A stretch of DNA of 23,127 bases, taken from assembly GCA_039794085.1 (NCBI GenBank), contig JBDIWC010000053.1, positions 1 to 23,127 on the forward strand, given 5' to 3'. Origin of the DNA: Gemmatimonadales bacterium (GTDB taxonomy: Bacteria > Gemmatimonadota > Gemmatimonadetes > Gemmatimonadales > GWC2-71-9). The notes under the pieces are model-generated. The model did no database searches, was not told the origin of the DNA, and saw only the letters and a list, made by a program, of their open reading frames with translations. Shown in pieces: positions 2,657-21,667 of this stretch (position 1 is the stretch's first letter; every line of letters starts with the position of its first letter). Made by a program: the position numbers and the translations under genes.

Positions 2657-3157
2657 ATGACTCGTCTGCTCCACCTCCGATGGCTCCCCTTTCTCCTGGC
2701 CCTCGGTGCTTGCTCCGCTGAGCCGGTGACCCGGGCCGCGGGATGCTGGGACCTGCGCTGGTTCCGCGACGGAGCGCCGCAGATCGGTCCCCTCCTGCCC
2801 GACCATGTTCACCTGACTGATAGTGCCGTCGAGGATGCGGGCGCCGCTCCCGGCCCGGGGGAATGGTTTCAGGTGGAGAAGGCACCCGGCGTGGTGGACA
2901 CGTCCACGTCTCCCTTCGCCGCCGCGGTGTCGTGGCCCGACACCTTTCTGGAGCGAGGGTGGCACACTCTCCCCGGCGACTCCGCCTTCCTCGTCCTGGC
3001 TATTCCCGAGGCGATGCGTCTGGAGATCCGGTTCGGGGTGGACCCGAGCGGAGAAGCGATGCAGGGAACCGGCTGGTATCGGAGCAACGGCGACTCGAGC
3101 CGAATCGCGGTGAACGCCACTCGGCCATCGTGCAGTGGGGAGGGGGGGGAAGTCTGA
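2657..3157 (+). CDS. Hypothetical lipoprotein
   Basis: Starts 13 nt after the previous stop with GAGGA upstream; lipobox LLALGAC. Confidence 0.7.
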   Translation: MTRLLHLRWLPFLLALGACSAEPVTRAAGCWDLRWFRDGAPQIGPLLPDHVHLTDSAVEDAGAAPGPGEWFQVEKAPGVVDTSTSPFAAAVSWPDTFLERGWHTLPGDSAFLVLAIPEAMRLEIRFGVDPSGEAMQGTGWYRSNGDSSRIAVNATRPSCSGEGGEV

Positions 3158-3203
3158 AGTTCGAAGTGTGAAGTGTGAAGTTCGAAGTTGAAGGTGTGAA
3201 GTC
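3149..3203. repeat. Heptamer tandem array GAAGT(TC/GT), reverse complement of the 75-106 array
   Basis: About 8 imperfect units overlapping the stop codon of 2657-3157. Confidence 0.9.
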
Positions 3204-4521: not shown

Positions 4522-5979
<1,458 letters not shown>

Positions 5980-6111: not shown

Positions 6112-6831
6112 TCAGCCCCCAGCCCCCAGCCCCCAGCCCCCAGCCCCCAGCCCCTGGCGGCAGGCGGCCTCGAGGACCCATTCCCATCCCGGATGCAGGT
6201 TGTAGAACGACAGGCTCACGCCCAGGAGGGTCCGGACCAGCTGTCGGAGCCGTGCCTCGGTGGTGCCGGCGAGGTCGGCCAGTTGGGAGACCAAGGGACA
6301 GAGCCTCTCCTGGCGGGCGAGCCGGACCACGCGACGGAAGTCGGAGGCGTGGGCCTCGAATTCGGCCTGGACCAGGCGTTGGATGGTGCGGCGGCTACCG
6401 GAGTGGTTCGTGGATGCTCCGGCGGGTGCCATGGCGGCCTGGAGGAGCGGGAGATGCTCGGGGTGGCCGAGCCGATGGGCGAGCCATTCGGCGAGCAGCG
6501 CAATGGTGGGGGTGGGTCGGGCGTTGATGCTTTGCAGCACAACCTCAGGCGAAGGCAGGGATGTCACCGCATGCGATATGATCGCGGTCTGGCCGTGGCG
6601 GGCGATATCGAAGAGCCGCACTCCGGCTTCGATCCGGGGAATGAGGTGCGGTGGGGCCACAATGGCGAGCGGTATCCAGGGTGGGAGAGGCTCGGCGTGG
6701 GTGGCCACGAGGGGGAAGCACTCGATGTCGGTCAACTGACACGTCAGGATCCATCCGAAGTGAGGGTGCGGGCAGGAGGGTGCCCGGCGCCAGGTCCGGG
6801 TTCCGGGGAGGAGAAAGCTCGGATCGTCCAC
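6112..6831 (-). CDS. Degenerate AraC-like HTH regulator, copy 1
   Basis: GGAGGT RBS 5 nt before GTG. SRRTIQRLV and VSQLADLAGTTEARLRQLVRTLLGVS resemble the two AraC HTH subdomains. 15 substitutions over 224 aa versus copy 2, frame conserved. Confidence 0.7.
   Translation of the reverse strand: MDDPSFLLPGTRTWRRAPSCPHPHFGWILTCQLTDIECFPLVATHAEPLPPWIPLAIVAPPHLIPRIEAGVRLFDIARHGQTAIISHAVTSLPSPEVVLQSINARPTPTIALLAEWLAHRLGHPEHLPLLQAAMAPAGASTNHSGSRRTIQRLVQAEFEAHASDFRRVVRLARQERLCPLVSQLADLAGTTEARLRQLVRTLLGVSLSFYNLHPGWEWVLEAACRQGLGAGGWGLGAGG
6114..6155. repeat. Heptamer tandem array (AGCCCCC)n
   Basis: Five perfect units plus one imperfect; encodes the GLGAGGWGLGAGG tail of regulator copy 1. Confidence 0.95.
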
Positions 6832-7052
6832 GCATCACCTCCATCATGACGTTGGAAGGCAAGGGTGACCAATTTCCCGGTGACGATCGGGGGCCGTTTG
6901 GGATGCACATTGCCCGCCCTGGCGCAAGCGACCTACCGTCATGCGACAGATCTGGCACGCTGTGGTATGGTGGGGTCCGGCGCGTGCCCCTATCTTGTGC
7001 GTGACGCCGGGAATGAGCTCGGGTCACATGGACACACTACCAAGGAGGCACG

Positions 7053-7268
7053 GTGCAGTCGATCGCGAAGATCCTCTCCGCAGTCATGCTCGCCGCAGGC
7101 ATTGGTTTCGCGGCCATCGCCCTCACTCCCACCCGGGCCGTCGCTGACGGTTGTCGTACGGAGAACACGGACTATCAGGGACCGGGCACCGGAACCCCCC
7201 AAAACTGCCTCGGGGGGACCTGCAAACAGGGTTGGTGCTGCCTGATCTGCGAACAGCTCGTGCCTTGA
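7053..7268 (+). CDS. Secreted Cys-rich peptide precursor 1 (31-aa signal + 40-aa six-Cys core)
   Basis: AAGGAGG at 7042-7048. Signal ends AVA; core DGCRTENTDYQGPGTGTPQNCLGGTCKQGWCCLICEQLVP; homologous to 10500-10706. Confidence 0.88.
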   Translation: MQSIAKILSAVMLAAGIGFAAIALTPTRAVADGCRTENTDYQGPGTGTPQNCLGGTCKQGWCCLICEQLVP

Positions 7269-7426
7269 GGTAACCATGTCCGGCATCCGAGGTTGGCCAG
7301 GTAGTCTGCATGCATTCTATTCTTGGTACGTCCACCTGGCCACCCCCGGGGTGGCATGCCTTGCCGTATGCAGGTCGCGAAAGCCGGTCGATCACAGCAC
7401 AGATGAGTGGTGTGCGGGACGAGGCA

Positions 7427-7942
7427 ATGTTGCGTAGGGGGCTATGGCTCGGCCTTCTTATACTGCTGGGGGGCTGTTGGGGCGGCTCTGAACCAGGGAG
7501 TGAACTCCGCGTGGGTTCCCTCGCGCCCGAAGCCATGAGGGTCGATGGGCAGGACGCTCTCGTGATCGCAGGAAGCGTTGATGACTGCCTGAGTTGCGAC
7601 CTTCTGGGATTATTCGTGGCACTCCGTGCCCTGCAACATTCGCAGGCACCAACCCCAGCCCCGGAGGTTCTCTTTCTCGCGATATCCAATCGCGCAAGTG
7701 ACACCCTGTACTTTCGACAGACGATGCGACGAGAACGGGTGAAGGGGAGGATCACGTCAGTACTTCCCCGGGTGGCGGCGAAGCTATTCGTGCCAGGTAG
7801 ACTGCCAGCGATGTATCTTGTTGGCAGTGGTGTTATTGTGGGAGCGTGGGAACCCTCGATCGAACAGCGACTCGTGACGATCGAACGGGATGAGCTCCTA
7901 AGACTGATCGAGAGCCGTGTCAGCAGCGAGCCGGGTCACTGA
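7427..7942 (+). CDS. Thioredoxin-like lipoprotein with DCxxC (DDCLSC)
   Basis: Lipobox LLGGC; VGSLAP, DCLSC, EVLFLAIS and LPAMYLV (cis-Pro position). Start uncertain (7403 or 7427). Confidence 0.75.
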   Translation: MLRRGLWLGLLILLGGCWGGSEPGSELRVGSLAPEAMRVDGQDALVIAGSVDDCLSCDLLGLFVALRALQHSQAPTPAPEVLFLAISNRASDTLYFRQTMRRERVKGRITSVLPRVAAKLFVPGRLPAMYLVGSGVIVGAWEPSIEQRLVTIERDELLRLIESRVSSEPGH

Positions 7943-8067
7943 CAACGAGAAGTACGTCATGTTCACCAGAGGCATCGCCTCCCCGTTGTGGATGTCGTGC
8001 CCACGCCGCTCATGGTCAAGACCTGTGGTGATTTCCGCTTGACTGACAGGAAGGATGAGGGTTCCCG

Positions 8068-9162
8068 ATGCATCATCATTTGGTGTGGTTGGTCTTCACG
8101 CTGACAGGTCTGGTTGGTCTCGGGGGTTGCGACGACGGGCGTCGCCACCGCGAGAGTCAAGACGACCTTGTCGCCGGCGATCCGATCACTGTCGTGGATG
8201 GGCAGCAGTTCGATGAGGTCTTCGCTGTGTACGATACGCTGGAACTGGAAGAACCCCGAGGCGTCCTGACTGTCGCCCCGTTCGTGTCTCTCGATTCCGG
8301 GGGAGGGTTTCTCGTGGCGGATGGGGCTGAGCACCAGGTGCGGGTGTACTCACCCCAAGGGAAACTCCGCGAGGTATTCGGTGAGGGAACCGAACGGGTG
8401 GACTCGATCAAGTCGCCGGGACGTGCTCTTCGCCTGCCCGAGGGGGACATTCTCGTGGTCAACCTGACCGGCCCCCTGACCATCCTCCCGGCCCGTCACG
8501 AGGAACCATCCCGTTTCATTCCGCGATCCCTCCGTACGGCTCGCCACGCCGAGATCCTGAACGACCACGAAGTGCTCATGGTCGGCTCCGATTCGAATCC
8601 CGTCGCGGCCACGCTGTTTCGGCTCAACGTGGCGAATGGCTACTACTCAGAGAGGTACTTCGCACCCCCAGCGCATCTTGACAAATGGGTGACGACCTTC
8701 ATGTCTGCGGTCCGGACGGCTCGGCGGGGAAACCGGATCGCCGCCGTTCACATGCTGTCGGACACGCTCGTGATCTTCGATCTCTCTGGAAGGGAGCAGA
8801 AGCGGGTCCACATTCCCATCGATCCGTTTCGAGCTCCGGAAGGGCCCCTCCCGGAGGACGTGACATCGGCGGCCGAGCGGTATGCCTGGACGGCGCAGTT
8901 CACGTTGGTCATGGACCTGTTCTGGATCGATGACAATGCGATTCTCGTCCAATGGGCAAAGGCCCTGGAGAACGGGCTGGATGCCGATGTGGGAATCCTC
9001 CAGATGGATACGACTGGCGTCAGGGCGTGGGCCATTGCGCCCTCCCCGAAGCTCGTTGCCGTGCGGGGAGAGGAGTTTTTCTTCAGGGATCCGCGCAACA
9101 ATGACCCGAACCGATGGTGGGTGGCGAAGCGGAGAGTAAGTCCGAGGGAGCCTCCATCATGA
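8068..9162 (+). CDS. 6-bladed beta-propeller lipoprotein
   Basis: Lipobox LGGC; FLVADGAEHQVRVYSPQGKL and LVIFDLSGRE blade motifs. Confidence 0.8.
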   Translation: MHHHLVWLVFTLTGLVGLGGCDDGRRHRESQDDLVAGDPITVVDGQQFDEVFAVYDTLELEEPRGVLTVAPFVSLDSGGGFLVADGAEHQVRVYSPQGKLREVFGEGTERVDSIKSPGRALRLPEGDILVVNLTGPLTILPARHEEPSRFIPRSLRTARHAEILNDHEVLMVGSDSNPVAATLFRLNVANGYYSERYFAPPAHLDKWVTTFMSAVRTARRGNRIAAVHMLSDTLVIFDLSGREQKRVHIPIDPFRAPEGPLPEDVTSAAERYAWTAQFTLVMDLFWIDDNAILVQWAKALENGLDADVGILQMDTTGVRAWAIAPSPKLVAVRGEEFFFRDPRNNDPNRWWVAKRRVSPREPPS

Positions 9163-10352
9163 ACCCCCGGTGGTCGGCAGCAGCAATTGCGGCCGCTGTT
9201 CTCGCAGCGTGTGAGACGCCTCCATACGGGGCCCAGGACTGGACCGTTCGCGACAGTGCCGGTGTCACCATTGTGACCAATCACCCGTTGGAACCTGCCC
9301 GGGGCTGCATTGAGATCGCGACCCCGGCGGAGGTGGTCATTCGCTCAGGTGACGGAACCAACCCGGGGTCCCTCCCGCCGCTGATCCAGGTTCGTGGAGG
9401 GACCCTGCTGCCGGACGGGCGGACGGTGGTTCTGGCGGCCGGCACATGGCAGATCCTCTTTTACGATGCGGAGGGCCGCTTCCAACATGCCGTCGGTCGC
9501 AATGGCCAGGGCCCGGGAGAGTTCATCAGGCCCACGTGGCTCGGTTCGGGGAGGGGGGATACGCTGTTCATCTGGGATGCCAGCCAGCGCCGACTGACCA
9601 TCCTGGATGGTACCGGGACGCTCCTGACGACACAGAAGGTGGACGGGGCAGCGGAGCATCCCGACATCGGGGGCAGGTTTGGGGATGGCTCTTTTCTCAT
9701 GCGTCCGGGTGGGGCGGCGTTCTTTCCCCGGACGTCTGACGTGGTTCGACTGGAAGAAACCTACGGAAGGCACGACCCTTCCACCGGGGTCACAACGCTT
9801 CTGGCCGCTGGCAAGTCACGGGAGATGGCTCTTAGTGAGACAAGTGGGCGCTATGGCCTGCCGTTCGGTAGAGCGACCGTGGTGGCGGCGAACCGGGACC
9901 ATTTGATTCTGGCGGACACCGGCGAACCCGAGCTTCGGTTCCACGACCTGAATGGACAGGTTCGCCGGATCGTTCGGTGGACTTCACCACCGATCCCGGT
10001 GACGGCACAGGACCGGACGGACTATGCGGTCCACTATGCCGCGGAGTCCCCTCGGTTCGCGCCTCCCCCCGATGCGGAGTTCGCACGGGAACGGCCACGG
10101 TTGACCTCGATCATCACCGACCACATGGGGTGGATCTGGGTAAAGAGGTACTCGGGCGGCTGGGAAGAACCACCACTCTGGCTCGTATTCGACGAACGAG
10201 GTGTCCTCCGGTGTGAGATCGAGCCGCCGGCCCGGTTGTTGGAGTTGGAGATCGGCGCCGACTACCTGCTCAGTCTGCAGCGCGATTCCACAGGGGAGGA
10301 GACCGTCATGCGCTGGGGGCTCCGGCGCAGGGTTGAGGCGGTGACGCGATAG
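9159..10352 (+). CDS. 6-bladed beta-propeller lipoprotein
   Basis: ATGA overlap with the upstream stop. Lipobox VLAAC; VRDSAGVTIVTN, GRNGQGPGEF, DTLFIWD and WLVFDERG. Confidence 0.85.
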   Translation: MNPRWSAAAIAAAVLAACETPPYGAQDWTVRDSAGVTIVTNHPLEPARGCIEIATPAEVVIRSGDGTNPGSLPPLIQVRGGTLLPDGRTVVLAAGTWQILFYDAEGRFQHAVGRNGQGPGEFIRPTWLGSGRGDTLFIWDASQRRLTILDGTGTLLTTQKVDGAAEHPDIGGRFGDGSFLMRPGGAAFFPRTSDVVRLEETYGRHDPSTGVTTLLAAGKSREMALSETSGRYGLPFGRATVVAANRDHLILADTGEPELRFHDLNGQVRRIVRWTSPPIPVTAQDRTDYAVHYAAESPRFAPPPDAEFARERPRLTSIITDHMGWIWVKRYSGGWEEPPLWLVFDERGVLRCEIEPPARLLELEIGADYLLSLQRDSTGEETVMRWGLRRRVEAVTR

Positions 10353-10355
10353 GCA

Positions 10356-11525
10356 TTACTCGCCGATCGGGGTACGAGCGAGGGGATTGGTTGTCTCAGC
10401 GTTCATGTGCTGGGACAAGAGCAAGGTCGTGTGGAGGACCAGGTCATCGTAGGTGGTATCCATGGAGCTGTAACTGCACATGTGATCAGGGAGGGTCCAA
10501 TGCTGTCGATGGTAAGGCTTCTCACCGCAATCGCACTCACTACGGCTGTCGGTTTCGGTGTAATCGCCGTGACACCCGATAAGGCCACCGCAGGTGATTG
10601 CGTATTCGTGGCCGCTGACTTCACGGGGCCGGGGGATGTGGCCTGCCTCAACTCCAGCTGCTATGCCGGGTGGTGTTGTCAGCTCTGTGATCCGATCGAG
10701 CCGTAGAGATGACCACGACTGTACTCGGGAGGGTATGGCCCGAGGTCCGTGTTCTCTCCTGCCACCGGTTGGATTCGGCTCCCGAGCCCGGAAACCTGGT
10801 GACCGGGGGGGCGACGGGGGTTCACCCGGGACGTCAACCCCAAGCCCGCGGAGGCAGGCGGCCTCGAGGACCCATTCCCATCCAGGATGCAGGTTGTAGA
10901 ATGACAGGCTCACGCCCAGGAGGGTGCGGACCAGCTCTCGGAGCCGGGCCTCGCTGGTGCCGGCGAGGTCGGCGAGTTGGGACACGAAGGGAGTGAGCCT
11001 CTCCTGCCGGGCGATCCGGACGACGCGCCGGAAGTCGGAGGCGTGGGCCTCGAACTCGGCCTGGACCTGGCGTTGGATGGTGCGATGGCTGCCGGAGTGA
11101 TTCGTGGAGGCTCCGGCGGGTGCCATGGCGGCCTGGAGGAGCGGGAGATGCTCGGGGTGGCCGAGCCGATGGGCGAGCCATTCGGCGAGCAGCGCGATGG
11201 TGGGGGTGGGTCGGGTATTGATGCTTTGGAGTACCACTTCAGGCGAAGGCAGGGAGGCCACGGTACGAGATATGACCGCCGTCTGGCCGTGGCGGGCGGT
11301 ATCGAAGAGCCGTACCCCGGCTTCGATTCGGGGAATGAGGTGCGGCGGGGCCACGATGGCGAGCGGTATCCAGGGCGGGAGTGTCTCCGCGTGGGTGGCC
11401 ACGAGCGGGAAGCACTCGATGTCTGTCAACTGACACGTCAGGATCCACCCGAAGTGGGGGGGCGGGCAGGAGGGAGCCCGGCGCCAGGTCCGGGTTCCGG
11501 GGAGGAGAAAGCTCGGATCGTCCAC
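10356..11525 (-). CDS. Degenerate AraC-like HTH regulator, copy 2; homology stops near 10853 and the rest is a probable run-on tail
   Basis: About 93% identical to copy 1 over 224 aa (manual count), same RBS and GTG start. Confidence 0.65.
   Translation of the reverse strand: MDDPSFLLPGTRTWRRAPSCPPPHFGWILTCQLTDIECFPLVATHAETLPPWIPLAIVAPPHLIPRIEAGVRLFDTARHGQTAVISRTVASLPSPEVVLQSINTRPTPTIALLAEWLAHRLGHPEHLPLLQAAMAPAGASTNHSGSHRTIQRQVQAEFEAHASDFRRVVRIARQERLTPFVSQLADLAGTSEARLRELVRTLLGVSLSFYNLHPGWEWVLEAACLRGLGVDVPGEPPSPPRSPGFRAREPNPTGGRREHGPRAIPSRVQSWSSLRLDRITELTTPPGIAAGVEAGHIPRPREVSGHEYAITCGGLIGCHGDYTETDSRSECDCGEKPYHRQHWTLPDHMCSYSSMDTTYDDLVLHTTLLLSQHMNAETTNPLARTPIGE
10500..10706 (+). CDS. Secreted Cys-rich peptide precursor 2 (31-aa signal + 37-aa six-Cys core)
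   Basis: AGGGAGG at 10488-10494 before ATG 10500 (ORF track starts at 10407). Signal ends ATA; core GDCVFVAADFTGPGDVACLNSSCYAGWCCQLCDPIEP. Confidence 0.88.
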   Translation: MLSMVRLLTAIALTTAVGFGVIAVTPDKATAGDCVFVAADFTGPGDVACLNSSCYAGWCCQLCDPIEP

Positions 11526-11763
11526 GCATCACCTCCATCATGACGTTGGAAGGCAAGGGTGACCAACCTCCCGGTGACGATTCGGGAGCTGTGTGGATGC
11601 ACATTGCCCGCGGTGATGAGCGACCTACCGCCAGGCGACAGAGCTGGCACACCATGGACTGGTGGGCGTATTGCCCGGGCCATATCATTCTCTGACAGGT
11701 TCCGGTCGGACGCAAGAAGGATGGAACGTCACACAACAGATCCCATTCCACAAGGAGGATTCC

Positions 11764-11967
11764 ATGCTTGGCAAGATCGTCCGTGTTCTCGGACTGGTGG
11801 GCGTTCTCATCAGTTCCGGTATCGCGCCCGCCACGTCGGCCGACGGGTTCATGTGGCAGCCGCAGGAAGTCGAGGCCCAGGCGGTCGAGATGGGTCTGTG
11901 CAAGCTCGTGAAGGATATTGAGGGCGTCTATCACTGCCATGAAGCCGGAGACGACTGCCACGCCTAA
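11764..11967 (+). CDS. Secreted small peptide precursor 3 (three Cys, EVEAQA motif)
   Basis: AAGGAGG at 11752-11758. MLGKIVRVLGLVGVLISSGIAPATSA-DGFMWQPQEVEAQAVEMGLCKLVKDIEGVYHCHEAGDDCHA; same position relative to regulator copy 2 as peptide 1 to copy 1. Confidence 0.82.
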   Translation: MLGKIVRVLGLVGVLISSGIAPATSADGFMWQPQEVEAQAVEMGLCKLVKDIEGVYHCHEAGDDCHA

Positions 11968-12038
11968 CTCCTGGATCTGATGGTGGAGAGTGGCCGGAAC
12001 CTGTCTCCCACCGCAACCGTCATACACAAGGAACAATC

Positions 12039-13184
12039 ATGCGACTGGAGCCCTTCGTCCGACTTGGCAGAGGCCGAAAATCACCAGTAGTCGCTTGGAA
12101 CGGCATAGCGGCTGGACTGGTTACGCTGAGCCTTGCGTGTACGGAAGGAGCTCCTGCCGGCTCGCCCTCCTCCATTCGAAAGATGGAAGCGTCTGAGATA
12201 ACCTCTCTGACACTTGTACGCCTGGACTCCTTGGTCTTGAGGACGCATGACGGCATGGTCCAAGGAATAAGCGATTTCGTCCGCTACGCGGAGGGCTTTG
12301 CGGTAGTGGATAGGTTTTCGAAGCATGTCCACCTCTTTGATACCGCTGGCAAGTATCGCCTGAGCTTCGGAGGCAATGGCGATGGCCCCGGGGAGTTTCG
12401 CGACCCAATGGGCGTGGCCATTGATGGAGCAGAGATCCTGGTCGTCGACCCAGGCCGGGGTCGGGCGATCAATACGTTTGACAGTCAAGGAGCTTTTGTT
12501 GCGGTCGAGCAGCTACCGATTCATCACGCACCCATCGCGCTGCACGCCGACGGGGGCAAGGTATACGTACTCGCCAACGGTGCTCATGATCCTGTCCAAC
12601 TGGCCCAAGAAGGTGACGAGACACTATGGGTGCTTGGCGAGGAACTCGAGGTCCTCGGGCGGGGATGCTCTCAGGATCCCCGATATGTCGAGAGCTTGAA
12701 GCGACGGGGCAGGATTGATCGTATAGAAGGTGGCTCAATCTCGGTGCAGGGGGGACGGATATTCTGTGCTCAAGTGATTTCACCAGTCATCGAGGTCATG
12801 GATACGACCGGTATCCCCCTTGGTACGGTTCGCGTGGCGCCCCCGTTCTACAAGACTCCCATCGATTCGCCATTCGTTGCCAACGATAAGGTGTTTTTTG
12901 GCTTTCTGTCGCAATGGACCAGTCACCGAAAGGTATTTGGACTCCGTGATGGCGCTGGATTTGTCTCGGTCTATGGTCAATTCGACGAAACGCGGAGCGG
13001 GTTTCGTTACTGGTTGTTCCGCTGTGGCCTGGACGCCGACCTTAGGGTCTCCGATTGCGCCAGCATCGCGCTCGCGAAAAAGCCTCTTCTGGTCACGCCC
13101 GATGGCGATGTGTACCTCGAGGAAGACACTGGACCGAGCGAGCCTCCGGTCGTTGGGCATTACGCGATGACAGTGGAGCGCTAA
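12039..13184 (+). CDS. 6-bladed (NHL-like) beta-propeller lipoprotein
   Basis: Lipobox LSLAC; HVHLFDTAGKYRLSFGGNGDGPGEFRDPMGVAIDG. Confidence 0.85.
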   Translation: MRLEPFVRLGRGRKSPVVAWNGIAAGLVTLSLACTEGAPAGSPSSIRKMEASEITSLTLVRLDSLVLRTHDGMVQGISDFVRYAEGFAVVDRFSKHVHLFDTAGKYRLSFGGNGDGPGEFRDPMGVAIDGAEILVVDPGRGRAINTFDSQGAFVAVEQLPIHHAPIALHADGGKVYVLANGAHDPVQLAQEGDETLWVLGEELEVLGRGCSQDPRYVESLKRRGRIDRIEGGSISVQGGRIFCAQVISPVIEVMDTTGIPLGTVRVAPPFYKTPIDSPFVANDKVFFGFLSQWTSHRKVFGLRDGAGFVSVYGQFDETRSGFRYWLFRCGLDADLRVSDCASIALAKKPLLVTPDGDVYLEEDTGPSEPPVVGHYAMTVER

Positions 13185-13187
13185 GCG

Positions 13188-13784
13188 ATGCCAAGAACAC
13201 TTATGGCTTTTGTTGCCACGGTTAGCATGGTGGCTTGTGGGACGACAGCGCGCCCTTCCCATCCTGGCGGCTCTCCCGGCGGCCTGTCGCGCGCCCTGTC
13301 AGAACATGGAGTGCGTCTGGGCCAAGTGGCACCAGCAGTGCGGATGGAATGTAGTGATGGCGTTAGCCGTAACGTCGGGGCGAAGGATACCTACCAACTC
13401 ATCACGTTCGCGACCAAGTCCGATTGTGCGATGTGCAATCGTCACCTCGCGTCACTCGACAGGGTCGAGTGGAACAATCTCCCTCCGGTGGATCGATTCA
13501 TCGTGTCTTGGAGCCCAATAGCATCCGATGTGAGGCACATCGCTTCGGCGGGACAGGGTACTCCTCTAGGGTTGCCACTGTGCCTCGATCGGGAGGGGGT
13601 TCTTTGGGATAGCCTCAATCTAAGTCATACGCCGTTCACGACGATTCTGGCAAATGGCGTGGTTGTGTATTTGGAGGATCGTGACCTGTCCCGTGTCGGG
13701 AGACTTGAGGAATTCGTGGGAGATTTGTCCAGTCTACTCGCAGTGCCCAAGGTCCAAGACGTTAAGGCGCCGGCCAATCATTGA
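13188..13784 (+). CDS. Thioredoxin/AhpC-TSA-like lipoprotein with DCxxC (SDCAMC)
   Basis: Lipobox MVAC; GQVAP, LITFATKSDCAMC, LCLDREG and TPFTTIL. Confidence 0.8.
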   Translation: MPRTLMAFVATVSMVACGTTARPSHPGGSPGGLSRALSEHGVRLGQVAPAVRMECSDGVSRNVGAKDTYQLITFATKSDCAMCNRHLASLDRVEWNNLPPVDRFIVSWSPIASDVRHIASAGQGTPLGLPLCLDREGVLWDSLNLSHTPFTTILANGVVVYLEDRDLSRVGRLEEFVGDLSSLLAVPKVQDVKAPANH

Positions 13785-14180
13785 TTGTGAAGCCGTCGGG
13801 TTGGCAGGCTGAACCTTGTTTCCTTGTTGGCCTTGCACCTGCCCTTCTGAAGGGCCAAGGGCCAAGGGCCGGTGTCGCGTGGTGCGTCGATGCATCGGCT
13901 CCACACCGCCGCTCTTTTCAGGATCGTTGGGTATGGCAGTGCTGAGGGACAGGAGCCACAGCCTTTAGCGCCAGTTGTCACCATCATGACCAACGGGGAG
14001 GCCGAAACCTTAGGCCCCGGGCAACGCTCCCGCGGCCCTTATGCGATGCAACGGGCTGTGTGATCAAATACACCGAACAGTGGATGGCGCGTTGGCTGTC
14101 GCAAAATGCGGGGTCTCGGAACTGGTGACCCTTACCTCCGACCTCAGGATCACAGCCCATCTCGGGCGTGGCGGCAGCGA

Positions 14181-14312
14181 TCCCGGGGAGGGGAAGTCGG
14201 GTTGTCCACCTGTCACTTCCACCACCACACTGAAAGGCAGGCGATCAACCTCCTGGTGCCGGGGCCGCGAGGCACGCCGCGGTGATGCGAGCGGCCTGTC
14301 GCCTGGCGTCAG
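14181..14312 (-). pseudogene. Relic third copy of the regulator 5' end plus the divergent intergenic region
   Basis: CCGGGGAGGGGAAGTCGGGTTGTCCAC, GAAAGGCAGGCGATCAACCTCCTGGTG and CCGCGGTGATGCGAGCGGCCTGTCGCCTGGCGTCAG align colinearly with about 11497-11641. GTG at 14209 is followed by a frameshift. Confidence 0.7.
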
Positions 14313-14520
14313 TCAGGTTCACGGATCCGTTTTCCGTCCTGATGCTGGCTGCAGGGTGATCCATGGTGGCGAGCAGGCCAAGTCCGGGTGTATCCGACGC
14401 CGGTTGCGACAAAGGGGTATGTGTTGCCTTGCGGGTCCTCCTGCGTCTCACCTGATACATTGGATACTGAACCGGGGGTGGTTTTCGCCCTCTGTTGTTC
14501 ACTCTACCGTGTCTTGTCCC

Positions 14521-15720
14521 ATGATGAAACAGGCCGGCCACCACATCCGAAGGACTTGGGCCCTCACCGGAATCGCGGCGGTCGGGGCAATGCTCCCGGT
14601 GTCGGCTCAGGCCCAGGTGCCGGGTCCCATCCTGAGCGGGGTCGTGGTGGACACTCTCGGCCTCCCGCTGGCCCTGGCTGAGATCATCGCGGTGCGAGCC
14701 GGAGACACCACCCGGTACGTGGCGCGGGCGGGTGCCCGGGGTGGGTTTGTAATCACCGGCCCCGGGTCGGGGGAATACGCCGTCACGGTGCGGCGGATCG
14801 GGTACCAGCCGATACAGGTGACCCTCTCCCTCCGGTTGGCGGAACCCTACTGGATCCGGTTTGAGATGGTGCCGCAGCCCCAGCAGCTCCCCGATGTGCT
14901 GGTGGAGGCAACTCCCGAGAGGGGACGCCGGGGGCCGCTGCTGAGCGGGCTGGTGGTGGACGATGCGCGGGAGCCGGTGCCGTTCGCCGAAATCGTGGTG
15001 AGCGGATTCATGCCCAAGACCCGGGGGCCGTGGCAGGTGCAGACCGATGCCCGGGGACGATTCCGGTTCCCCGAGGTGAAGCCGGGGCAGTATGCGGTGA
15101 CGGTGCGGCGGATCGGGTATGTGCCGATCCGGGCCTCCTTGTCGCTGAAGGAGACGCCGCGGGCCATCGAGTTCGTGATGGCGACGTGGCCGGCGGAGCT
15201 GCCGGAGCTGAAGGTGGTGGCGCGGCGAAACAACCTCCTGCGCGGGGTGAGGCGGGCGTCAGCATACTTCGGGAAGTTCCTCACCCGGGACGACATCGAG
15301 GCGGCGGCCCCGAAGACGCTCGGCGATTTCATGACGCGCTACCTCCCGAGCGTGCCACCGGGCGGGTTCTCCATCCCGAACATCCCCCACGGGATGCTCC
15401 CTCCACTCGGCGGGCTGGCTCGCACCAATTCATCGGGACCGCGGCCGCGCTTGAACGCTGGCGCAAAGCGGGCCGCTTTCCTGGGCCCAGGGTGTCCGCC
15501 GGTGATCTCGATCAATGGGGCGCCGGCCCAGGCGGGGTGGGCCATCAACGACTTCGATCCGCAACAGATCGAGGCACTCGAGGTGTACCGGCGGCGGGAC
15601 CGGCCCGCTCCCTGGGAGTTCCAGGAGGATCTGGTCTTTTTGCGGAGCTGCGGCTCGCTCGTGGTGGTGTGGCTCAAGGACCGCGCCACGGCGGTGACCA
15701 CGGAAGAGTCGTCGGGGTGA
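14521..15720 (+). CDS. Carboxypeptidase regulatory-like x2 + plug-like domain protein (copy 2)
   Basis: Same length (1200 nt) and near-identical mature sequence to 1444-2643; start chosen by alignment with copy 1. Confidence 0.85.
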   Translation: MMKQAGHHIRRTWALTGIAAVGAMLPVSAQAQVPGPILSGVVVDTLGLPLALAEIIAVRAGDTTRYVARAGARGGFVITGPGSGEYAVTVRRIGYQPIQVTLSLRLAEPYWIRFEMVPQPQQLPDVLVEATPERGRRGPLLSGLVVDDAREPVPFAEIVVSGFMPKTRGPWQVQTDARGRFRFPEVKPGQYAVTVRRIGYVPIRASLSLKETPRAIEFVMATWPAELPELKVVARRNNLLRGVRRASAYFGKFLTRDDIEAAAPKTLGDFMTRYLPSVPPGGFSIPNIPHGMLPPLGGLARTNSSGPRPRLNAGAKRAAFLGPGCPPVISINGAPAQAGWAINDFDPQQIEALEVYRRRDRPAPWEFQEDLVFLRSCGSLVVVWLKDRATAVTTEESSG

Positions 15721-15722
15721 GG

Positions 15723-16250
15723 TAGAACGTAGAACATAGGACGTAGGACAGAGGACTTAGTCCCTTACAGACCAGATGGAACACAAAACGGCAACAATAT
15801 TGTTGCCGACGGCTGAAAACCCACACCGGCGGCCCGTGGGCCGCCGCGGGTTGGGAGGGAAGGCAGTGTACGGGCCGTTCGCGAACGGCCCGTACACGCC
15901 GGCAGCTCAGCCCAGGGGCCGTTCACGAACGGCCCGTACACGTCGGCAGATTGGGCAAGGGTCGTTCACGAATGGGGATAGGCCCAGCGAAACAGTGACC
16001 CAAGTTCGTGAACCGCTTTGGTTCCGGCTCTGTCGGCTTGGGGGAACTCTGATCAATTGACGGGATAACCAATGCCCGTCATTCCCGCGCAAGCGGGCAT
16101 CCATTCTCCTCCTCAACCCCTCGTCGACATGGATCCCCGCGTTCGCGAGGATGACGAATCAGAGATTCCCGATGTCCTACTGTCCTATTGTCCTACGTCC
16201 TCTGTCCTCTGTCCTCCGTTCTCTCTTCTCTCTCCTCTCCCCTCTCTCCT
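15723..16250. repeat. Composite intergenic repeat region: inverted heptamer arrays enclosing two REP-like families
   Basis: TAG(A/G)AC(G/A) array 15723-15760; perfect 32-bp palindrome 15866-15897 with copies at 15916-15941 and about 15958; inverted pair 16078-16103 / 16130-16155; (T/C)GTCCT(A/C) array drifting to CT-rich units at 16173-16250. Confidence 0.85.
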
Positions 16251-17725: not shown

Positions 17726-17830
17726 GAGGCAGGGCAGCCCCGCGGGAATCCATTGCAGGGGCCGTTCACGGTCGGTCGTCCCTCCGTCCTCCCTTCTCAC
17801 TCCTCTCTTCTCTCTCCTCTCCCCTCTCTC

Positions 17831-20029
17831 CTAAAAATGCGTCGACATCTGGAACACCACGTTCCGTCCCTGATCAACCGCGAATCGCTTGAACCGGCTC
17901 ATGAAGTTGGTGTAGGTCTTGTCGAACAGATTCCTCACGCTCACATCCACGTGCACTTCCGCAGTGCCCACTCCGACGACCGCACCGGCGCCGAGCGAGG
18001 CGAGGGTATAGCCGTCCGGCGCGAAGTCCTGGGGGTCGAGCCGGGTCTGACGCCGGTTGGTCTCGCCTCCCAGATCGAGATAGAGATCCCGCACGGAACG
18101 GCCCTGCTGCGCTGCCTCCAGCCGGACCCCGTAGGTGACGCGGAGCGGGGGCATGAAGGGTAGGGGTTGATCCCGGGCCGTGTCCTCCCCGCGCACGAAG
18201 TCGCTGCCGCCCCGGAAGTGCAGCCAGGAGGTGGGGTGGTACTCGGCCGCCGCCTCGAATCCGATCAGGGTGGCATCGGTCTGCGCGATGTTGAAGATCT
18301 CGAGGTTGGATTCCGGATCGAAGGTTCCGGTCGGGTCAGGGAAGATGAAGTCGTTGATGCGGTTCACGAAGCCGCCCAGCTCGGCCCGGAGACGGCCGCT
18401 CTGGACCCGAACGGCCAGGTCCACATTGGTGCTGGTTTCGTTGCTCAAGTCCGGGCTGCCGATCTCGAAGCGGCTGGTGCCTTCATGGACGCCGTTCGAG
18501 AAGAGTTCGAACACGCTGGGTGCCCGGAATCCCCGCCCCACGTTGAGCACGAGGGCCACCGGTTCGCTCACCCGGACCAGCGCCCCCAGGGTTCCGGTGA
18601 CCGAGTTCCATGACTGAGCCTGGGCGGTGACGCCGAGCCCGGCGTCGTCATCCACGGTGAGGCGGCGGTGGTCGGCGCGGATGCCCGCACTGAGGATCCA
18701 GGGGCCGGTCGGGAGCTGCTCGAAGGCGAAGATGCCGATGCCGTTGGTGGCGGACCCGGGAACCAGGTCCTCCTCGCCGCCCTTGTCGAGCGTGCTCCGG
18801 ATGGCCGAGACGCCGATGGTACCCGCGGCGGGGCCCAGGGTGTGACGGAGCCGGACATCGCCGGTCCAGGTCTCGGCGTCGAGAACGAGCGCCGGGTCCG
18901 GCTCGTCGTCGGCCTCGAACTCGCGCCGGAAGTTGCGCTGAAATCCGGCGTTCACCTCCAGGCGGGACCCTCCCCGGACGGGGAGGTTGAGTTCGGCCCG
19001 GAGCCGGTCGTCCCGGATCCGCTGGAAGCCGGAGAAATCGGGCTCCTCCGCGGGATCCTCATGGATCTCGATCCGTTCGTTCCGGTGCGCATAGTGGAGG
19101 CTGGTGTTGCCCCAGGTGCCGCGGGTTCCCACGGTGACATCGCCACCAAAGGAGCGATAGGCGGAGTTGGAAAGATCCCCGGTGGGGGTCTCGATGTTGC
19201 CCGCCCGGCGGGCCGAGAAGCTCCCGCGAAATCCGACGGCTCCCGTGGCGCCCTCCAGGCCCAGGGTCCCTTCCGGCGCCGAGCCGTTGGTTCCGAATCC
19301 CGATTTGAGGGACCAGAGCGCGAAGGGGTTCCGATCGATCGCGTCGGGGAGGGGGCGCTCCACCACGTTGATGACCCCGCCCAGGGCGTCGGAGCCGTAC
19401 AGCACGCTGGCCGGCCCTCGAATCACCTCGATGCGCTCCGCGTCGGCCGTCTCCACGTTGGGACCGTGTTCGTCTCCCCACTGCTGGCTCTCCAGACGCT
19501 GGCCATCGGCAAGTACCAGGACCCGGTTGGAGGTGAGGCCGCGGATCACCGGCTTTCCGATTCCATTGCCGGTGCTGAGGTTGCGGAGCCCCGGTTCCAG
19601 GGCCAGGGTTTCGCCGAGGGTGGCCCGATTGGCGGTGCGTAGGGCCTCGGCATTGAGCACGCTGAGAGGCTGAGGCGACTCGAGTGCGGAGGTGGCCATC
19701 GCCGAGGCGGTGACCTGCAGGGTGGGGACCTCGACGATGGATATGGACATGGTGACATCGAGCGTCGCGATCCCGTCTCCCACGACCACCCTCCGTACCT
19801 CGGGCCGATATCCGATCATTGCGAACGAGACGGTGTAGGTGCCATTGGGAAGCCCACCAATGCGGAAGCTCCCCTCCCGGGACGTGGTGGCATGGCGGTG
19901 GACCTCCACCACTTCCACCCGGACCTCGGCGAGGGGCAGGCCCTCCGCGGTCTGAACTCGGCCGGTCAGATCGCCTTGATCTCCGGTCGGTACGGCGGCG
20001 AGGAGAGCCGCCAGAACGAATGTGTGCAT
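17831..20029 (-). CDS. TonB-dependent outer-membrane receptor, probably metal uptake
   Basis: Signal peptide, carboxypeptidase-like N-domain, plug GIGKPVIRGL...QQWGDEHG...IEVIRGPASVLYGSDALGGVIN, FRAPSVFELFSNGVHEG, NLFDKTY, terminal Phe. Confidence 0.95.
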   Translation of the reverse strand: MHTFVLAALLAAVPTGDQGDLTGRVQTAEGLPLAEVRVEVVEVHRHATTSREGSFRIGGLPNGTYTVSFAMIGYRPEVRRVVVGDGIATLDVTMSISIVEVPTLQVTASAMATSALESPQPLSVLNAEALRTANRATLGETLALEPGLRNLSTGNGIGKPVIRGLTSNRVLVLADGQRLESQQWGDEHGPNVETADAERIEVIRGPASVLYGSDALGGVINVVERPLPDAIDRNPFALWSLKSGFGTNGSAPEGTLGLEGATGAVGFRGSFSARRAGNIETPTGDLSNSAYRSFGGDVTVGTRGTWGNTSLHYAHRNERIEIHEDPAEEPDFSGFQRIRDDRLRAELNLPVRGGSRLEVNAGFQRNFRREFEADDEPDPALVLDAETWTGDVRLRHTLGPAAGTIGVSAIRSTLDKGGEEDLVPGSATNGIGIFAFEQLPTGPWILSAGIRADHRRLTVDDDAGLGVTAQAQSWNSVTGTLGALVRVSEPVALVLNVGRGFRAPSVFELFSNGVHEGTSRFEIGSPDLSNETSTNVDLAVRVQSGRLRAELGGFVNRINDFIFPDPTGTFDPESNLEIFNIAQTDATLIGFEAAAEYHPTSWLHFRGGSDFVRGEDTARDQPLPFMPPLRVTYGVRLEAAQQGRSVRDLYLDLGGETNRRQTRLDPQDFAPDGYTLASLGAGAVVGVGTAEVHVDVSVRNLFDKTYTNFMSRFKRFAVDQGRNVVFQMSTHF

Positions 20030-20553: not shown

Positions 20554-20934
20554 TCATCGCTGGCGGATCCGGTCGACCGCGCGGCGCACCATGACCTCGA
20601 GGTGGGCCATTTCGGTCGGTTTGACGAGATAATTCTCGGCCCCTTCCTTGAGGGCCGAGAGGGCTACTTCGATCTGGCTCCGCCCGGTCAGCATGATTAC
20701 CGACGCCCCGCGGCGCCGGAGCTCGGGCAACGCCTGCATGCCGGTCATCTCCGGCATGTCGATGTCGAGAATGGTCACGTCGGGCCGTATCGCATCCCAG
20801 GTGGTGAGGCATTCCCGGCCGTTGGTGGCCTGGTGGACCTCGTGACCGAGATGCGAAAAGTGGCCCGCCATGAGCCGGAGCATGTCCGGATCATCGTCGC
20901 AGAGGAGCAGGCGCCAGGGGGTAGGGTCGGTCAC
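20554..20934 (-). CDS. Stand-alone response-regulator receiver domain (NtrC-like)
   Basis: LLLCDDD, ILDIDMPEMTG, VIMLTG and GAENYLVKP; GTG start at 20934 chosen by domain boundary. Confidence 0.85.
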   Translation of the reverse strand: MTDPTPWRLLLCDDDPDMLRLMAGHFSHLGHEVHQATNGRECLTTWDAIRPDVTILDIDMPEMTGMQALPELRRRGASVIMLTGRSQIEVALSALKEGAENYLVKPTEMAHLEVMVRRAVDRIRQR

Positions 20935-21048
20935 TGCGATTCCGGGGTGAGGAGTTGGTTCCGTTCGCGAAAGCTGGATGGCCCCGGCTGTTTTCGCAAC
21001 CGGAAGCTGTGGAGCGCAGAGGGGTGTCCAGCACACCGCTAATCGATA

Positions 21049-21117
21049 TGCCGAAATGGCTGGTTTTCGTCCGGTGTAAAGCCATATTGGCAGGTATTCG
21101 TGGGCACACCAGATGCA
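21049..21117 (+). promoter_or_regulatory. Sigma54-type promoter of hsp20 with an upstream inverted pair of activator-like sites
   Basis: TGCCGAAATGGCT (21049-21061), AGCCATATTGGCA (21080-21092) and GGGCACACCAGATGCA (21102-21117); all three are retained in the decayed duplicate. Confidence 0.55.
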
Positions 21118-21187
21118 TAACATGGGCGCAGAGGGGACATGGAGATCCCCGATTTCAACGCCAACGTACCACACAGGAGGAATGACC

Positions 21188-21667
21188 ATGCTGGTGACAA
21201 CGACTCAACGGCCCCTGGACAGCGCCAGCCCGTGGAATCTTCACAGCGCCCCGTGGAATCTTCGGCGCCTCAATCGGTTCTTCGACGATGCCTTCGGAAC
21301 GGGAGGCTTCGACGACGCTTCGGCAGGGCTGGTTTCCGCCTGGGTTCCCCCGTGCGACATCTTCGAGAACCAGGAATCGGTGAAGCTGGTCCTGGAGCTT
21401 CCCGGGGTGAAGCCGGAGGACGTGAAGCTCTCCCTGGAGAACGGCACAATGATGGTGCGGGGGGAGAAGAAGCAGGTGGCCGAGGAGAAGACGGAGAGGG
21501 TTCATCGCTACGAAAGGAGCTACGGAGTGTTCGAACGTCGCTTCAGTCTGCCGAACTCGGTGGATGCCGAGGCGATCAAGGCCAACTTCGAGCAGGGCGT
21601 GCTGACCGTGACGCTCCCCAAGGTGGAGCGGGCCCGGCCCCGGGAGATTCCGGTGACCAGCAGCTGA
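21188..21667 (+). CDS. Hsp20/alpha-crystallin small heat-shock protein
   Basis: AGGAGG at 21175-21180, 7 nt before ATG 21188 (alternative 21182). WVPPCDIFE, ELPGVKPEDV, ERSYGVFERRFSLP and GVLTVTLPK. Confidence 0.96.
   Translation: MLVTTTQRPLDSASPWNLHSAPWNLRRLNRFFDDAFGTGGFDDASAGLVSAWVPPCDIFENQESVKLVLELPGVKPEDVKLSLENGTMMVRGEKKQVAEEKTERVHRYERSYGVFERRFSLPNSVDAEAIKANFEQGVLTVTLPKVERARPREIPVTSS

Follow-up and report, generated by a model that had tools for sequence, protein, structure and literature searches.

Two gene cassettes on one contig

The window analysed here is the whole of contig C53 (JBDIWC010000053.1; 23,127 bp) from the genome of a Gemmatimonadales bacterium (GCA_039794085.1; 4.16 Mb in 115 contigs, 94.7% complete). 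It carries two neighbouring gene cassettes, A and B, in each of which genes for small, exported, cysteine-rich peptides stand together with genes for six-bladed beta-propeller lipoproteins and a thioredoxin-like (Trx-like) lipoprotein, and are preceded by a divergently oriented regulator gene (Table 1). Cassette A consists of regA on the minus strand followed by pep1, trxA, propA1, propA2 and pep2, whereas cassette B has regB on the minus strand followed by pep3, propB and trxB. An earlier reading of the DNA made from its letters alone (hereafter the sequence-only reading) had proposed that one peptide/propeller/Trx-like/regulator architecture occurs here twice, and the list of open reading frames (ORFs) and their translations bear this out, all ten genes being found where that reading had placed them apart from minor corrections of start positions. 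Some of the genes overlap or nearly abut: the stop codon of propA1 overlaps the ATG of propA2 (9159) as ATGA, and only 3 nt separate the propB stop from the trxB start. Gene and signal-peptide calls were made with in-house heuristics trained on the same genome, and lipobox calls were made by eye.

Table 1. Features of the two cassettes and of the adjoining sequence, in window coordinates
Feature	Position	Strand	Description
regA	6112-6831	-	AraC/XylS-type regulator, 239 aa
Divergent control region regA/pep1	6832-7052		partly repeated 5' of pep3 at 11526-11763
pep1	7053-7268	+	71-aa precursor, GTG start
trxA	7310-7942	+	thioredoxin-like lipoprotein, D-C-L-S-C; likely start 7427
propA1	8068-9162	+	six-bladed propeller lipoprotein, divergent subfamily
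propA2	9114-10352	+	DUF5128/NHL-type six-bladed propeller lipoprotein; likely start 9159
pep2	10500-10706	+	68-aa precursor, ATG at 10500
regB	10356-11525	-	regA copy, family-like part 10836-11525
pep3	11764-11967	+	67-aa precursor, ATG start
propB	12039-13184	+	DUF5128/NHL-type six-bladed propeller lipoprotein
trxB	13188-13784	+	putative TlpA/ResA-like thioredoxin-fold lipoprotein, D-C-A-M-C
CarboxypepD_reg-domain protein	14524-15720	+	two CarboxypepD_reg domains; start inferred from paralogue at 1444-2643
Tandem arrays	75-106, 3149-3202, 5915-5977, 6113-6154, 13850-13870, 15723-15760, 16173-16250, 17787-17832

Exported peptides with conserved cysteine frameworks

The peptides had been described as precursors of 67–71 residues with strong ribosome-binding sites (RBSs), signal peptides and cysteines, and all three pass our crude peptide detector, which takes ORFs of 40–130 aa and evaluates four features: a signal peptide, an RBS word, the codon-usage score and the number of cysteines in the mature part (at least two). 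Once the RBS and codon score are required, pep1, pep2 and pep3 are the only ORFs in the window to pass the signal-peptide and cysteine test. The start of pep1 is preceded at 5 nt by AAGGAGG, and its Sec signal peptide has a predicted cleavage site after A29-V30-A31, leaving a mature part of 40 aa with six cysteines (C-x17-C-x4-C-x4-CC-x2-C), a net charge of about -2 and the C-terminus LVP. The product of pep2, whose start we corrected to the ATG with GGAGGG upstream, is a paralogue of pep1 (mature part ~37 aa, six cysteines, net charge -5, ending in IEP). The third peptide gene, pep3, again has AAGGAGG upstream of its ATG, and its product has a mature part of ~42 aa with three cysteines and two histidines (C-x12-C-x7-C-H-A), a net charge of -7 and the C-terminus C-H-E-A-G-D-D-C-H-A; it is unrelated to pep1 and pep2 and has no homologue in its own genome, to which this search was confined.

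Six metagenomic homologues of pep1 were found (48–80% identical), in which all six cysteines and the G-W-C-C motif are invariant, as they are in pep2. In this family the mature part is more conserved than the signal peptide, and the pep1 protein is identical in the sister species. Searches of curated families returned no Pfam or NCBIfam match for pep1, pep2, pep3, trxA or trxB, and a search of the ESM Atlas with pep1 returned unnamed clusters only (at 0.81). The sequence-only reading had likened the loci to those of Bacteroidota, where it placed NVEALA peptides next to six-bladed propeller lipoproteins and thioredoxin-like CxxC proteins. None of the three peptides matches the NVEALA family (PF14055) at E values up to 0.1; PF14055 was not found anywhere in the genome either, and as 14 control genomes were likewise silent this genome-wide search is a weak one.

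The window ORFs scanned contain no maturase, protease or peptidase, or ABC transporter family, in agreement with the sequence-only reading, and together with the Sec-type signal peptides this sets the loci apart from gene clusters for ribosomally synthesised and post-translationally modified peptides (RiPPs).

Propeller and thioredoxin-like lipoproteins

Both propB and propA2 match PF17170 (DUF5128) above its gathering cut-off of 22.9 bits (38.2 bits, E 1.2e-9, and 24.1 bits, E 2.5e-5, respectively). A GNGDGPGEF motif is visible in propB, and propA2 has a paralogue on contig C22 that is 79% identical. The product of propA1 falls below the PF17170 cut-off and has only a weak NHL match, at 15.2 bits where 20 would be required; it was recruited by an iterated profile built on the propellers of its own genome, which finds 71 propeller ORFs there. 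The propellers are hypervariable, with pairwise identities of 15–22%, and a metagenome scan seeded with propB found nothing. The lipoboxes claimed for all five partner proteins could be seen by eye as L/M/S-x-[GA]-C motifs (LGGC in propA1, LAAC in propA2, SLAC in propB, LGGC in trxA and MVAC in trxB), and the lipobox residue Cys21 is invariant across 25 propA1-type sequences. Propeller genes also form tandem arrays, such as the four at C22:36742-42451, which lie 3' of one peptide gene and one Trx-like gene; similar arrays occur in other genomes, e.g. three consecutive genes on G049:C22.

Translated from its probable start at 7427, trxA gives MLRRGLWLGLLILLGGC. It has no detectable similarity to trxB (BLASTP E 0.18). 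A hand-seeded profile of trxA, trxB and six more Trx-like ORFs retained both among its 18 matches after two rounds, other matches including ORFs with Thioredoxin_2, Thioredoxin_8 and AhpC-TSA domains. ORFs found beside propA1-type propellers in other genomes by the own-genome Trx-like profile, and not by an outside family, align with trxA, and the CxxC motif is intact in 9 of the 12 sequences; a trxA-type profile gave nothing significant against the PDB, with a possible thiol-disulfide isomerase at E 0.38. For trxB, three homologues keep the DCxxC motif and an HTPFT loop (CxxC is present in 4/4 family sequences), and an AlphaFold2 (AF2) model shows the beta-alpha order of the thioredoxin fold with the CxxC at a helix start. 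Foldseek aligned this model, with its predicted local distance difference test (pLDDT) value of 44, to thioredoxin-superfamily chains (best E 7e-5, template-modelling scores 0.3–0.5), and a metagenome scan with the trxB alignment found nothing. Taken together, these observations lead us to regard trxA and trxB as thioredoxin-like with moderate confidence. A fusion of Trx-like and propeller genes, seemingly present in long ORFs on C104, C71, L109, L121 and L129, was considered and appears less likely, as the genes there overlap in different frames and the long ORFs look like upstream GC-rich run-on.

Cassettes recur throughout the genome

Linkage between these gene types was assessed over the whole genome, and neither the paralogue counts given in this section nor the related-genome counts in the next are independent. 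The peptide detector returned 57 candidates, and six of these have one of the genome's eight regA paralogues within 1.5 kb, where ~0.4 would be expected from their density (57 per 4.16 Mb); five of the six are located 217–386 bp upstream in divergent orientation. A subset of 24 candidates with at most 90 aa and at least three cysteines was taken as the peptide set. As many as 20 of these 24 lie within 2.5 kb of one of the 71 propellers, compared with 8.6% of the genome that is this close to one (binomial p 4e-18, with the paralogues not being independent). Within 3 kb, a TlpA-like gene is found for 11 of the 24 peptides and a DsbA-like one for 4 (15 in all), a regA-type gene for seven and a gene for an extracytoplasmic function (ECF) sigma factor for three; at the same distance a CarboxypepD_reg gene is found for 10/24, compared with 7% of the genome. 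At least two members of the set appear to be spurious and were retained in all counts, one on C3 that overlaps a stronger ORF on the opposite strand and one on C58 that lies inside a larger ORF. Genome-wide there are ~20 such cassettes, 71 propellers and about 22–24 peptides, with some cassettes carrying DsbA-like enzymes or ECF sigma factors as substitutes. We conclude that chance is very far from explaining how the cassettes are arranged.

DsbA-like genes (Thioredoxin_4, E 1e-17 to 7e-23) fill the Trx-like slot in four sister cassettes whose peptides have six cysteines, an indication that the peptide undergoes disulfide chemistry. The similarity of peptides tracks that of their neighbouring propellers (Mantel rho 0.21, permutation p ~0.005, 20 pairs), a weak correlation of the kind expected from duplication of whole cassettes.

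The 24 candidate mature peptides have a median length of 40.5 residues and are negatively charged in 22 cases (median net charge -3.5). Fourteen end in proline, eight of them in Leu-Glu-Pro (LEP) and one, pep2, in Ile-Glu-Pro. Translation of the genome in six frames gives 53,777 ORFs of 40 codons or more; only 14 of them end in LEP, and 8 of these 14 belong to the peptide set. We rejected the possibility that this ending is a by-product of DNA repeats, since the codons differ between copies and the DNA downstream is unrelated; the same two observations argue that selection has acted on the LEP tag as a feature of the protein, in peptides whose cysteine frameworks are unrelated. The tag is not kept in the metagenomic relatives of pep1.

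Linkage in other genomes

Of 201 genomes surveyed from the class, 23 hold relatives of propA1, the window's own among them, which leaves 22 others; none was found in 38 other genomes of the window's own family. In all other genomes the loci were inspected with flanks of 1.5 kb. In the 22 genomes a small exported cysteine-containing peptide lies within 1.5 kb at 21 of 27 propA1-type loci, and a TlpA-like ORF is present at 10 of the 27. More specifically, a peptide with the motif C-x3-4-C-x4-9-CC adjoins the propeller at 20/27 propA1-type loci, as opposed to 0/28 control propeller loci searched with the same settings, and by length of sequence there are 24 motif peptides in 107 kb of propA1-type loci, as opposed to none in 110 kb of control loci. 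The window's own 4.16-Mb genome holds six motif peptides, pep1 and pep2 among them, and all six lie beside propellers. The sequence-only reading would have been refuted had small secreted cysteine-rich ORFs shown no enrichment beside homologues elsewhere, and such an enrichment is present. The comparative data show that peptide, propeller and thiol-disulfide oxidoreductase form genuine modules that are conserved and inherited together.

The propeller family as a whole is patchily distributed, occurring in 24/61 sampled genomes, with several genomes reaching 28–33 matches on a count that runs to 33 per genome. Around the best-matching propellers of other genomes the strict detector finds a peptide at 2/28 loci; by eye, these two resemble the peptides on contigs C25 and C35 of the window's own genome, and they lie beside propellers in other families or genera. 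At locus L038, from a more distant genus, a homologue of the regulator faces a propeller, a 155-aa cysteine-rich exported protein and a second propeller. Exported cysteine-rich proteins of 130–155 aa lie between propellers and regA-type homologues at both L038 (7871-8338) and L039 (4305-4697), and they share the pattern C-W-x-C ... W-N-C-S ... S-S-x-G-C-G. They would represent a second, longer kind of client.

Divergent regulators and their control regions

The products of regA and regB are 92% identical over 230 residues (1-230). The regB copy lacks the family's own stop codon, so that its frame continues for ~159 codons to 10356, antisense to pep2. An AF2 model of regA consists of an N-terminal alpha/beta domain and a C-terminal double helix-turn-helix (HTH). 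On its own, regA scores only 15.4 bits against HTH_18 (cut-off 33.6), whereas a profile of 123 family sequences matches the DNA-binding domain of AdpA (3w6v) at E 1.6e-6, the alignment spanning both HTH units, and family members carry HTH_18 (15/123) or HTH_AraC (3/123) matches. The claim that the divergent gene encodes a regulator thus holds, and the profile and the HTH-bearing members allow it to be assigned to the AraC/XylS type. In the ESM Atlas the regulator comes closest to HTH_18 clusters (0.88), a match that we treat as a lead only. Other comparisons were silent: a Foldseek search of the PDB with the regulator gave no match at E 0.001 or better, a 10-sequence profile gave nothing significant against the PDB, and hhalign of the regulator with the HTH_18 protein of contig C41 gave a probability of 2.9%. 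Residues 1-108, compared by VIA-align, resemble generic alpha/beta three-layer folds only (receiver and STAS domains, short-chain dehydrogenases/reductases and small GTPases; Z up to 6.4).

This regulator family is small, with eight word-index matches in 5.8 billion proteins and 126 representatives at E <=0.001 among 1.84 billion proteins. It is present in 20/401 sampled genomes of the phylum and is multi-copy in this genus only; a scan of genome contigs with the regulator alignment returned solely the metagenome-assembled genome of the sister species. The C-terminal tail of regA, GLGAGGWGLGAGG, is encoded by a tandem array of the 7-nt unit CAGCCCC, and the tail is conserved in the protein family. 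A further regA paralogue at C22:34624-35358 contains an in-frame TAG and is possibly a pseudogene; the adjoining peptide, Trx-like and propeller genes look intact.

The control regions of cassettes A and B are near identical over their first ~60 nt, both terminate in CAAGGAGG, and they share a 48-nt repeat that is 83% identical (6927-6974 and 11619-11666). Promoter-like and terminator-like sites between 5900 and 14200 are no commoner than in shuffled sequences, and no promoter consensus rises above the shuffles.

A putative peptide-handling system and its alternatives

We propose, with a probability of about 45% for the reading as a whole, that each cassette would give rise to a Sec-exported, anionic, cysteine-rich mini-protein of ~40 residues, the cysteines of which would be acted on in the periplasm by the cassette's own thioredoxin-like lipoprotein (through disulfide formation or isomerisation), and which may in turn be bound by the co-encoded NHL-type propeller lipoprotein(s), the cassette probably being under the control of the divergent AraC-type regulator. 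The cassette could then be seen as a split form of the Trx-NHL architecture of NHLRC2 and SOQ1 in which a gene for the client is included. The DsbA-like genes in four cassettes, taken together with the conserved cysteine frameworks, are most economically explained by thiol-disulfide chemistry acting on the peptide. That the propeller may supply a binding surface is suggested by NHLRC2 and SOQ1, in which the CxxC motif is placed in a cleft formed with the propeller. As to what the peptide would do, a role in antagonism or defence, with the propeller as its holder or as an immunity factor, is the one we favour within this proposal, though at less than even odds. It is supported by the number and hypervariability of the loci, by their patchy occurrence among lineages and their differences between sister species, and by propellers outnumbering peptides, at a ratio of ~3:1 that we liken to that of orphan immunity genes.

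A number of observations weigh against this proposal. Codon-usage scores are near zero for trxA, trxB, pep1 and pep2, and the GC content of the cassette region (57–62%) is below that of the rest of the window. The thioredoxin-like proteins lack a Pfam match and are dissimilar to each other; the top eight rows retrieved from the PDB by a trxB-family profile were all ResA, at a non-significant E of ~0.5, and the trxB model has a pLDDT of only 44. Moreover, TlpA-like proteins are usually reductants and not oxidases, so simple oxidative folding of the peptide fits badly. Only 22 of the 71 propellers in the genome have a peptide nearby, as do 4/28 control propeller loci (none of these with the motif), which indicates that the propeller family does not depend on peptides. 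The cysteine count of pep3 is odd, and no relative of it is known. Distant homologues of the regulator in several other genera adjoin unrelated genes. For an antagonistic peptide in particular, the mature products are anionic, whereas most membrane-active antimicrobial peptides are cationic, and there is no visible outer-membrane route, lysis gene or ABC exporter.

The most sceptical alternative is that the small ORFs are chance frames and that the real unit is an expanded propeller family with assorted neighbours. GC-rich DNA does give many spurious ORFs (204 ORFs of at least 50 aa in these 23 kb), at least two of the 24 candidates (those on C3 and C58) look like such frames, and most propellers have no peptide beside them. 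Chance frames would hardly keep six cysteines invariant across seven relatives of pep1 (the six from metagenomes and pep2) or be better conserved in the mature part than in the signal peptide, and the strong RBS sequences, the motif peptides at 20/27 propA1-type loci against 0/28 controls and the concentration of 8 of the 14 LEP-ending ORFs in the peptide set, with differing codons, all speak against it. The conservation data already contradict this alternative, and we give it hardly any credence. If the peptides are genuine, they could instead be the cross-linked small subunit of a periplasmic propeller enzyme, following the logic of methylamine dehydrogenase (MADH) and quinohemoprotein amine dehydrogenase (QHNDH), which comprise the same three parts: a propeller, a small cysteine-rich exported protein and a TlpA-like protein. 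The overlapping and abutting genes suggest stoichiometric partners, and a tryptophan stands beside the CC pair in pep1, pep2 and several relatives. This tryptophan is, however, not conserved across the motif peptides, the window has no gene for a MauG-like haem protein or a radical-SAM enzyme, the propellers are of the six-bladed NHL type and not of the seven-bladed dehydrogenase type, and 71 paralogues with hypervariable partners are unlike a metabolic enzyme. We therefore regard an enzyme of this kind as improbable.

In a role in metal handling, reduced peptides would bind copper or another metal for buffering or trafficking in the envelope, on the model of TlpA and ScoI, where a periplasmic thioredoxin maintains a CxxxC site in the reduced state for metallation. 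Such a role would suit TlpA-like partners, which are typically reductants; TlpA itself reportedly reduces ScoI and CoxB. The CxxxC and the CC pair contained in the motif, the histidines beside cysteines in the C-H-E-A-G-D-D-C-H-A end of pep3 and the strongly anionic character of the peptides are also in keeping with it. On the other hand, four sister cassettes carry DsbA-like proteins, typically oxidases, the pep1 family has no conserved histidine or methionine ligands (cysteines aside), no metal transporter or metal regulator is found in the cassettes, and the multiplicity and hypervariability of the loci are left unexplained, which together make metal binding an unlikely function. We are similarly sceptical, and slightly more so, of the idea that the peptides are cell-cell or envelope signals, with propeller lipoproteins as receptors and AraC-type or ECF regulators as the output. 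Each cassette having its own regulator (AraC-type or ECF sigma factor) and the joint diversification of peptide and propeller would suit such a circuit, but the regA-type regulator has no signal peptide or membrane segment in sequence or model, the propeller lipoproteins have no cytoplasmic part, so that there is no visible path from periplasmic binding to the regulator, and the cassettes yielded neither an identified histidine kinase nor an anti-sigma factor.

Neighbouring genes, sister species and duplications

Downstream of cassette B, the CarboxypepD_reg-domain protein has two such domains (E 6e-26) and no detected barrel. Its gene and the paralogue at 1444-2643 share DNA repeats (1340-2143 and 14419-15220, 72–94% identical). 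Proteins with one or two CarboxypepD_reg domains adjoin cassettes on C1, C30, C41, C69, C71, C104 and C108 as well; in some of them a Plug-like domain is matched weakly, at a score under the cut-off, and a TonB-receptor barrel was detected in none. This protein is a possible fifth component of the system.

In the sister species (G110, contig C57) peptides again adjoin regulators, and the DNA of cassette A is 98% identical to that of the window, compared with 85–95% in the flanks. The sister lacks exactly 10537-15118 (4.6 kb), and with it most of pep2, cassette B in its entirety and the CarboxypepD_reg gene's 5' half; its contig joins the equivalents of positions 10536 and 15119 directly, so that approximately 37 nt remain from the start of pep2 and, from the CarboxypepD_reg gene, the 3' part alone. 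With these leftover parts of the two genes on either side of the junction, a deletion in the sister would be the simplest explanation.

The contig as a whole is rich in recent duplications. Segment 16199-17267 is duplicated at 17781-18080 and 20734-21197 with 88–98% identity, and these duplications lie around two genes, one for a response regulator and one, on the minus strand at 17831-20029, for a TonB-dependent receptor. Tandem arrays with a period of 7 (or 14), made of differing units such as CTTCGAA, GAAGTGT, CGGTAGG, CAGCCCC and TGTCCTC, lie at gene ends and between genes (Table 1).

Relation to known systems

The pairing of the redoxin with the propeller recalls NHLRC2, found in animals and some bacteria, and SOQ1 of plants. 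In NHLRC2, the Trx-like domain and the NHL propeller form one conserved cleft around the CxxC motif, which its authors consider a binding site for a partner; Trx-NHL fusions are present in prokaryotes too, and the 7 bacterial genomes examined are reported to show no conserved neighbours (PMC6107167). SOQ1 has the same Trx-like/NHL pair in the plant thylakoid lumen. The cassettes, with their putative thioredoxin fold, resemble both in pairing a TlpA-like thioredoxin fold bearing a CxxC-type motif with a six-bladed NHL propeller, and resemble SOQ1 in locating the pair in an extracytoplasmic compartment. They differ in that the two parts are separate lipoprotein genes, found in either order, whereas NHLRC2 and SOQ1 are single polypeptides; in the motif, which is DCLSC, DCAMC or CLGC here and CC(I/V)NC there; and in having many paralogues per genome and an adjoining gene for a small cysteine-rich exported peptide. 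The cassette proteins thus fall outside the NHLRC2/SOQ1 family, and the likeness lies in a possible mode of action.

For a secreted peptide encoded together with its own thiol-disulfide oxidoreductases, the precedent is the sublancin 168 cluster of Bacillus subtilis SPbeta (sunI, sunA-sunT-bdbA-sunS-bdbB; PMC4336743), the product of which is described there as disulfide-bonded and antimicrobial, with an immunity gene alongside. Sublancin is glycosylated, and its leader, of the double-glycine type, is removed by an ABC transporter, whereas the peptides studied here have Sec signal peptides. The cassettes also contain no transporter or glycosyltransferase, their host is a diderm, and the candidate partner of the peptide is a propeller lipoprotein in place of a SunI-like membrane protein.

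Two periplasmic propeller systems offer further comparisons. The genes for methylamine dehydrogenase resemble the cassettes in combining a propeller (mauB) and a small, disulfide-rich exported subunit (mauA) with a TlpA-like, thioredoxin-like helper (mauD). The enzyme itself has a seven-bladed heavy subunit and a light subunit of ~130 aa with tryptophan tryptophylquinone, needs MauG, and is single-copy and metabolic. Arylsulfate sulfotransferase is a periplasmic beta-propeller encoded beside a dedicated DsbA-like DsbL/DsbI pair; unlike in the cassettes, the propeller there is both the enzyme and the disulfide client, and there is no small peptide.

A full-text literature search returned no published description of such cassettes, in line with the earlier suggestion that they are undescribed; NVEALA and DUF5128 were likewise without papers in this search, and nothing relevant to cysteine-rich secreted peptides of Gemmatimonadota was among the matches listed.

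Implications

Going one step further, and speculatively, Gemmatimonadota may carry a large, undescribed periplasmic system of hypervariable, disulfide-knotted, anionic mini-proteins, many of them LEP-tagged, each with its own propeller and redoxin, in which the dozens of propellers without a peptide would be acquired immunity or receptor genes. The mini-proteins would then be a bacterial counterpart of defensin-like and conotoxin-like gene families, and the propellers a new class of partner to them. If the proposal made above holds, ~70 propeller genes and ~20 peptide genes of one 4-Mb genome would serve an envelope system that is absent from papers and curated families. Diderms would have a further way of making secreted, disulfide-rich peptides, one that relies on Sec and needs few enzymes, and the peptides might serve as new antimicrobials or as stable peptide scaffolds. 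The pairing of thioredoxin-like and NHL domains is widespread and functionally obscure, and has been linked to human FINCA disease in the case of NHLRC2 and to plant photoprotection in that of SOQ1. The cassettes would provide a bacterial model for this pairing with the client encoded next door and, with the client gene adjoining, the question of which partner enters the Trx-NHL cleft would become directly testable.

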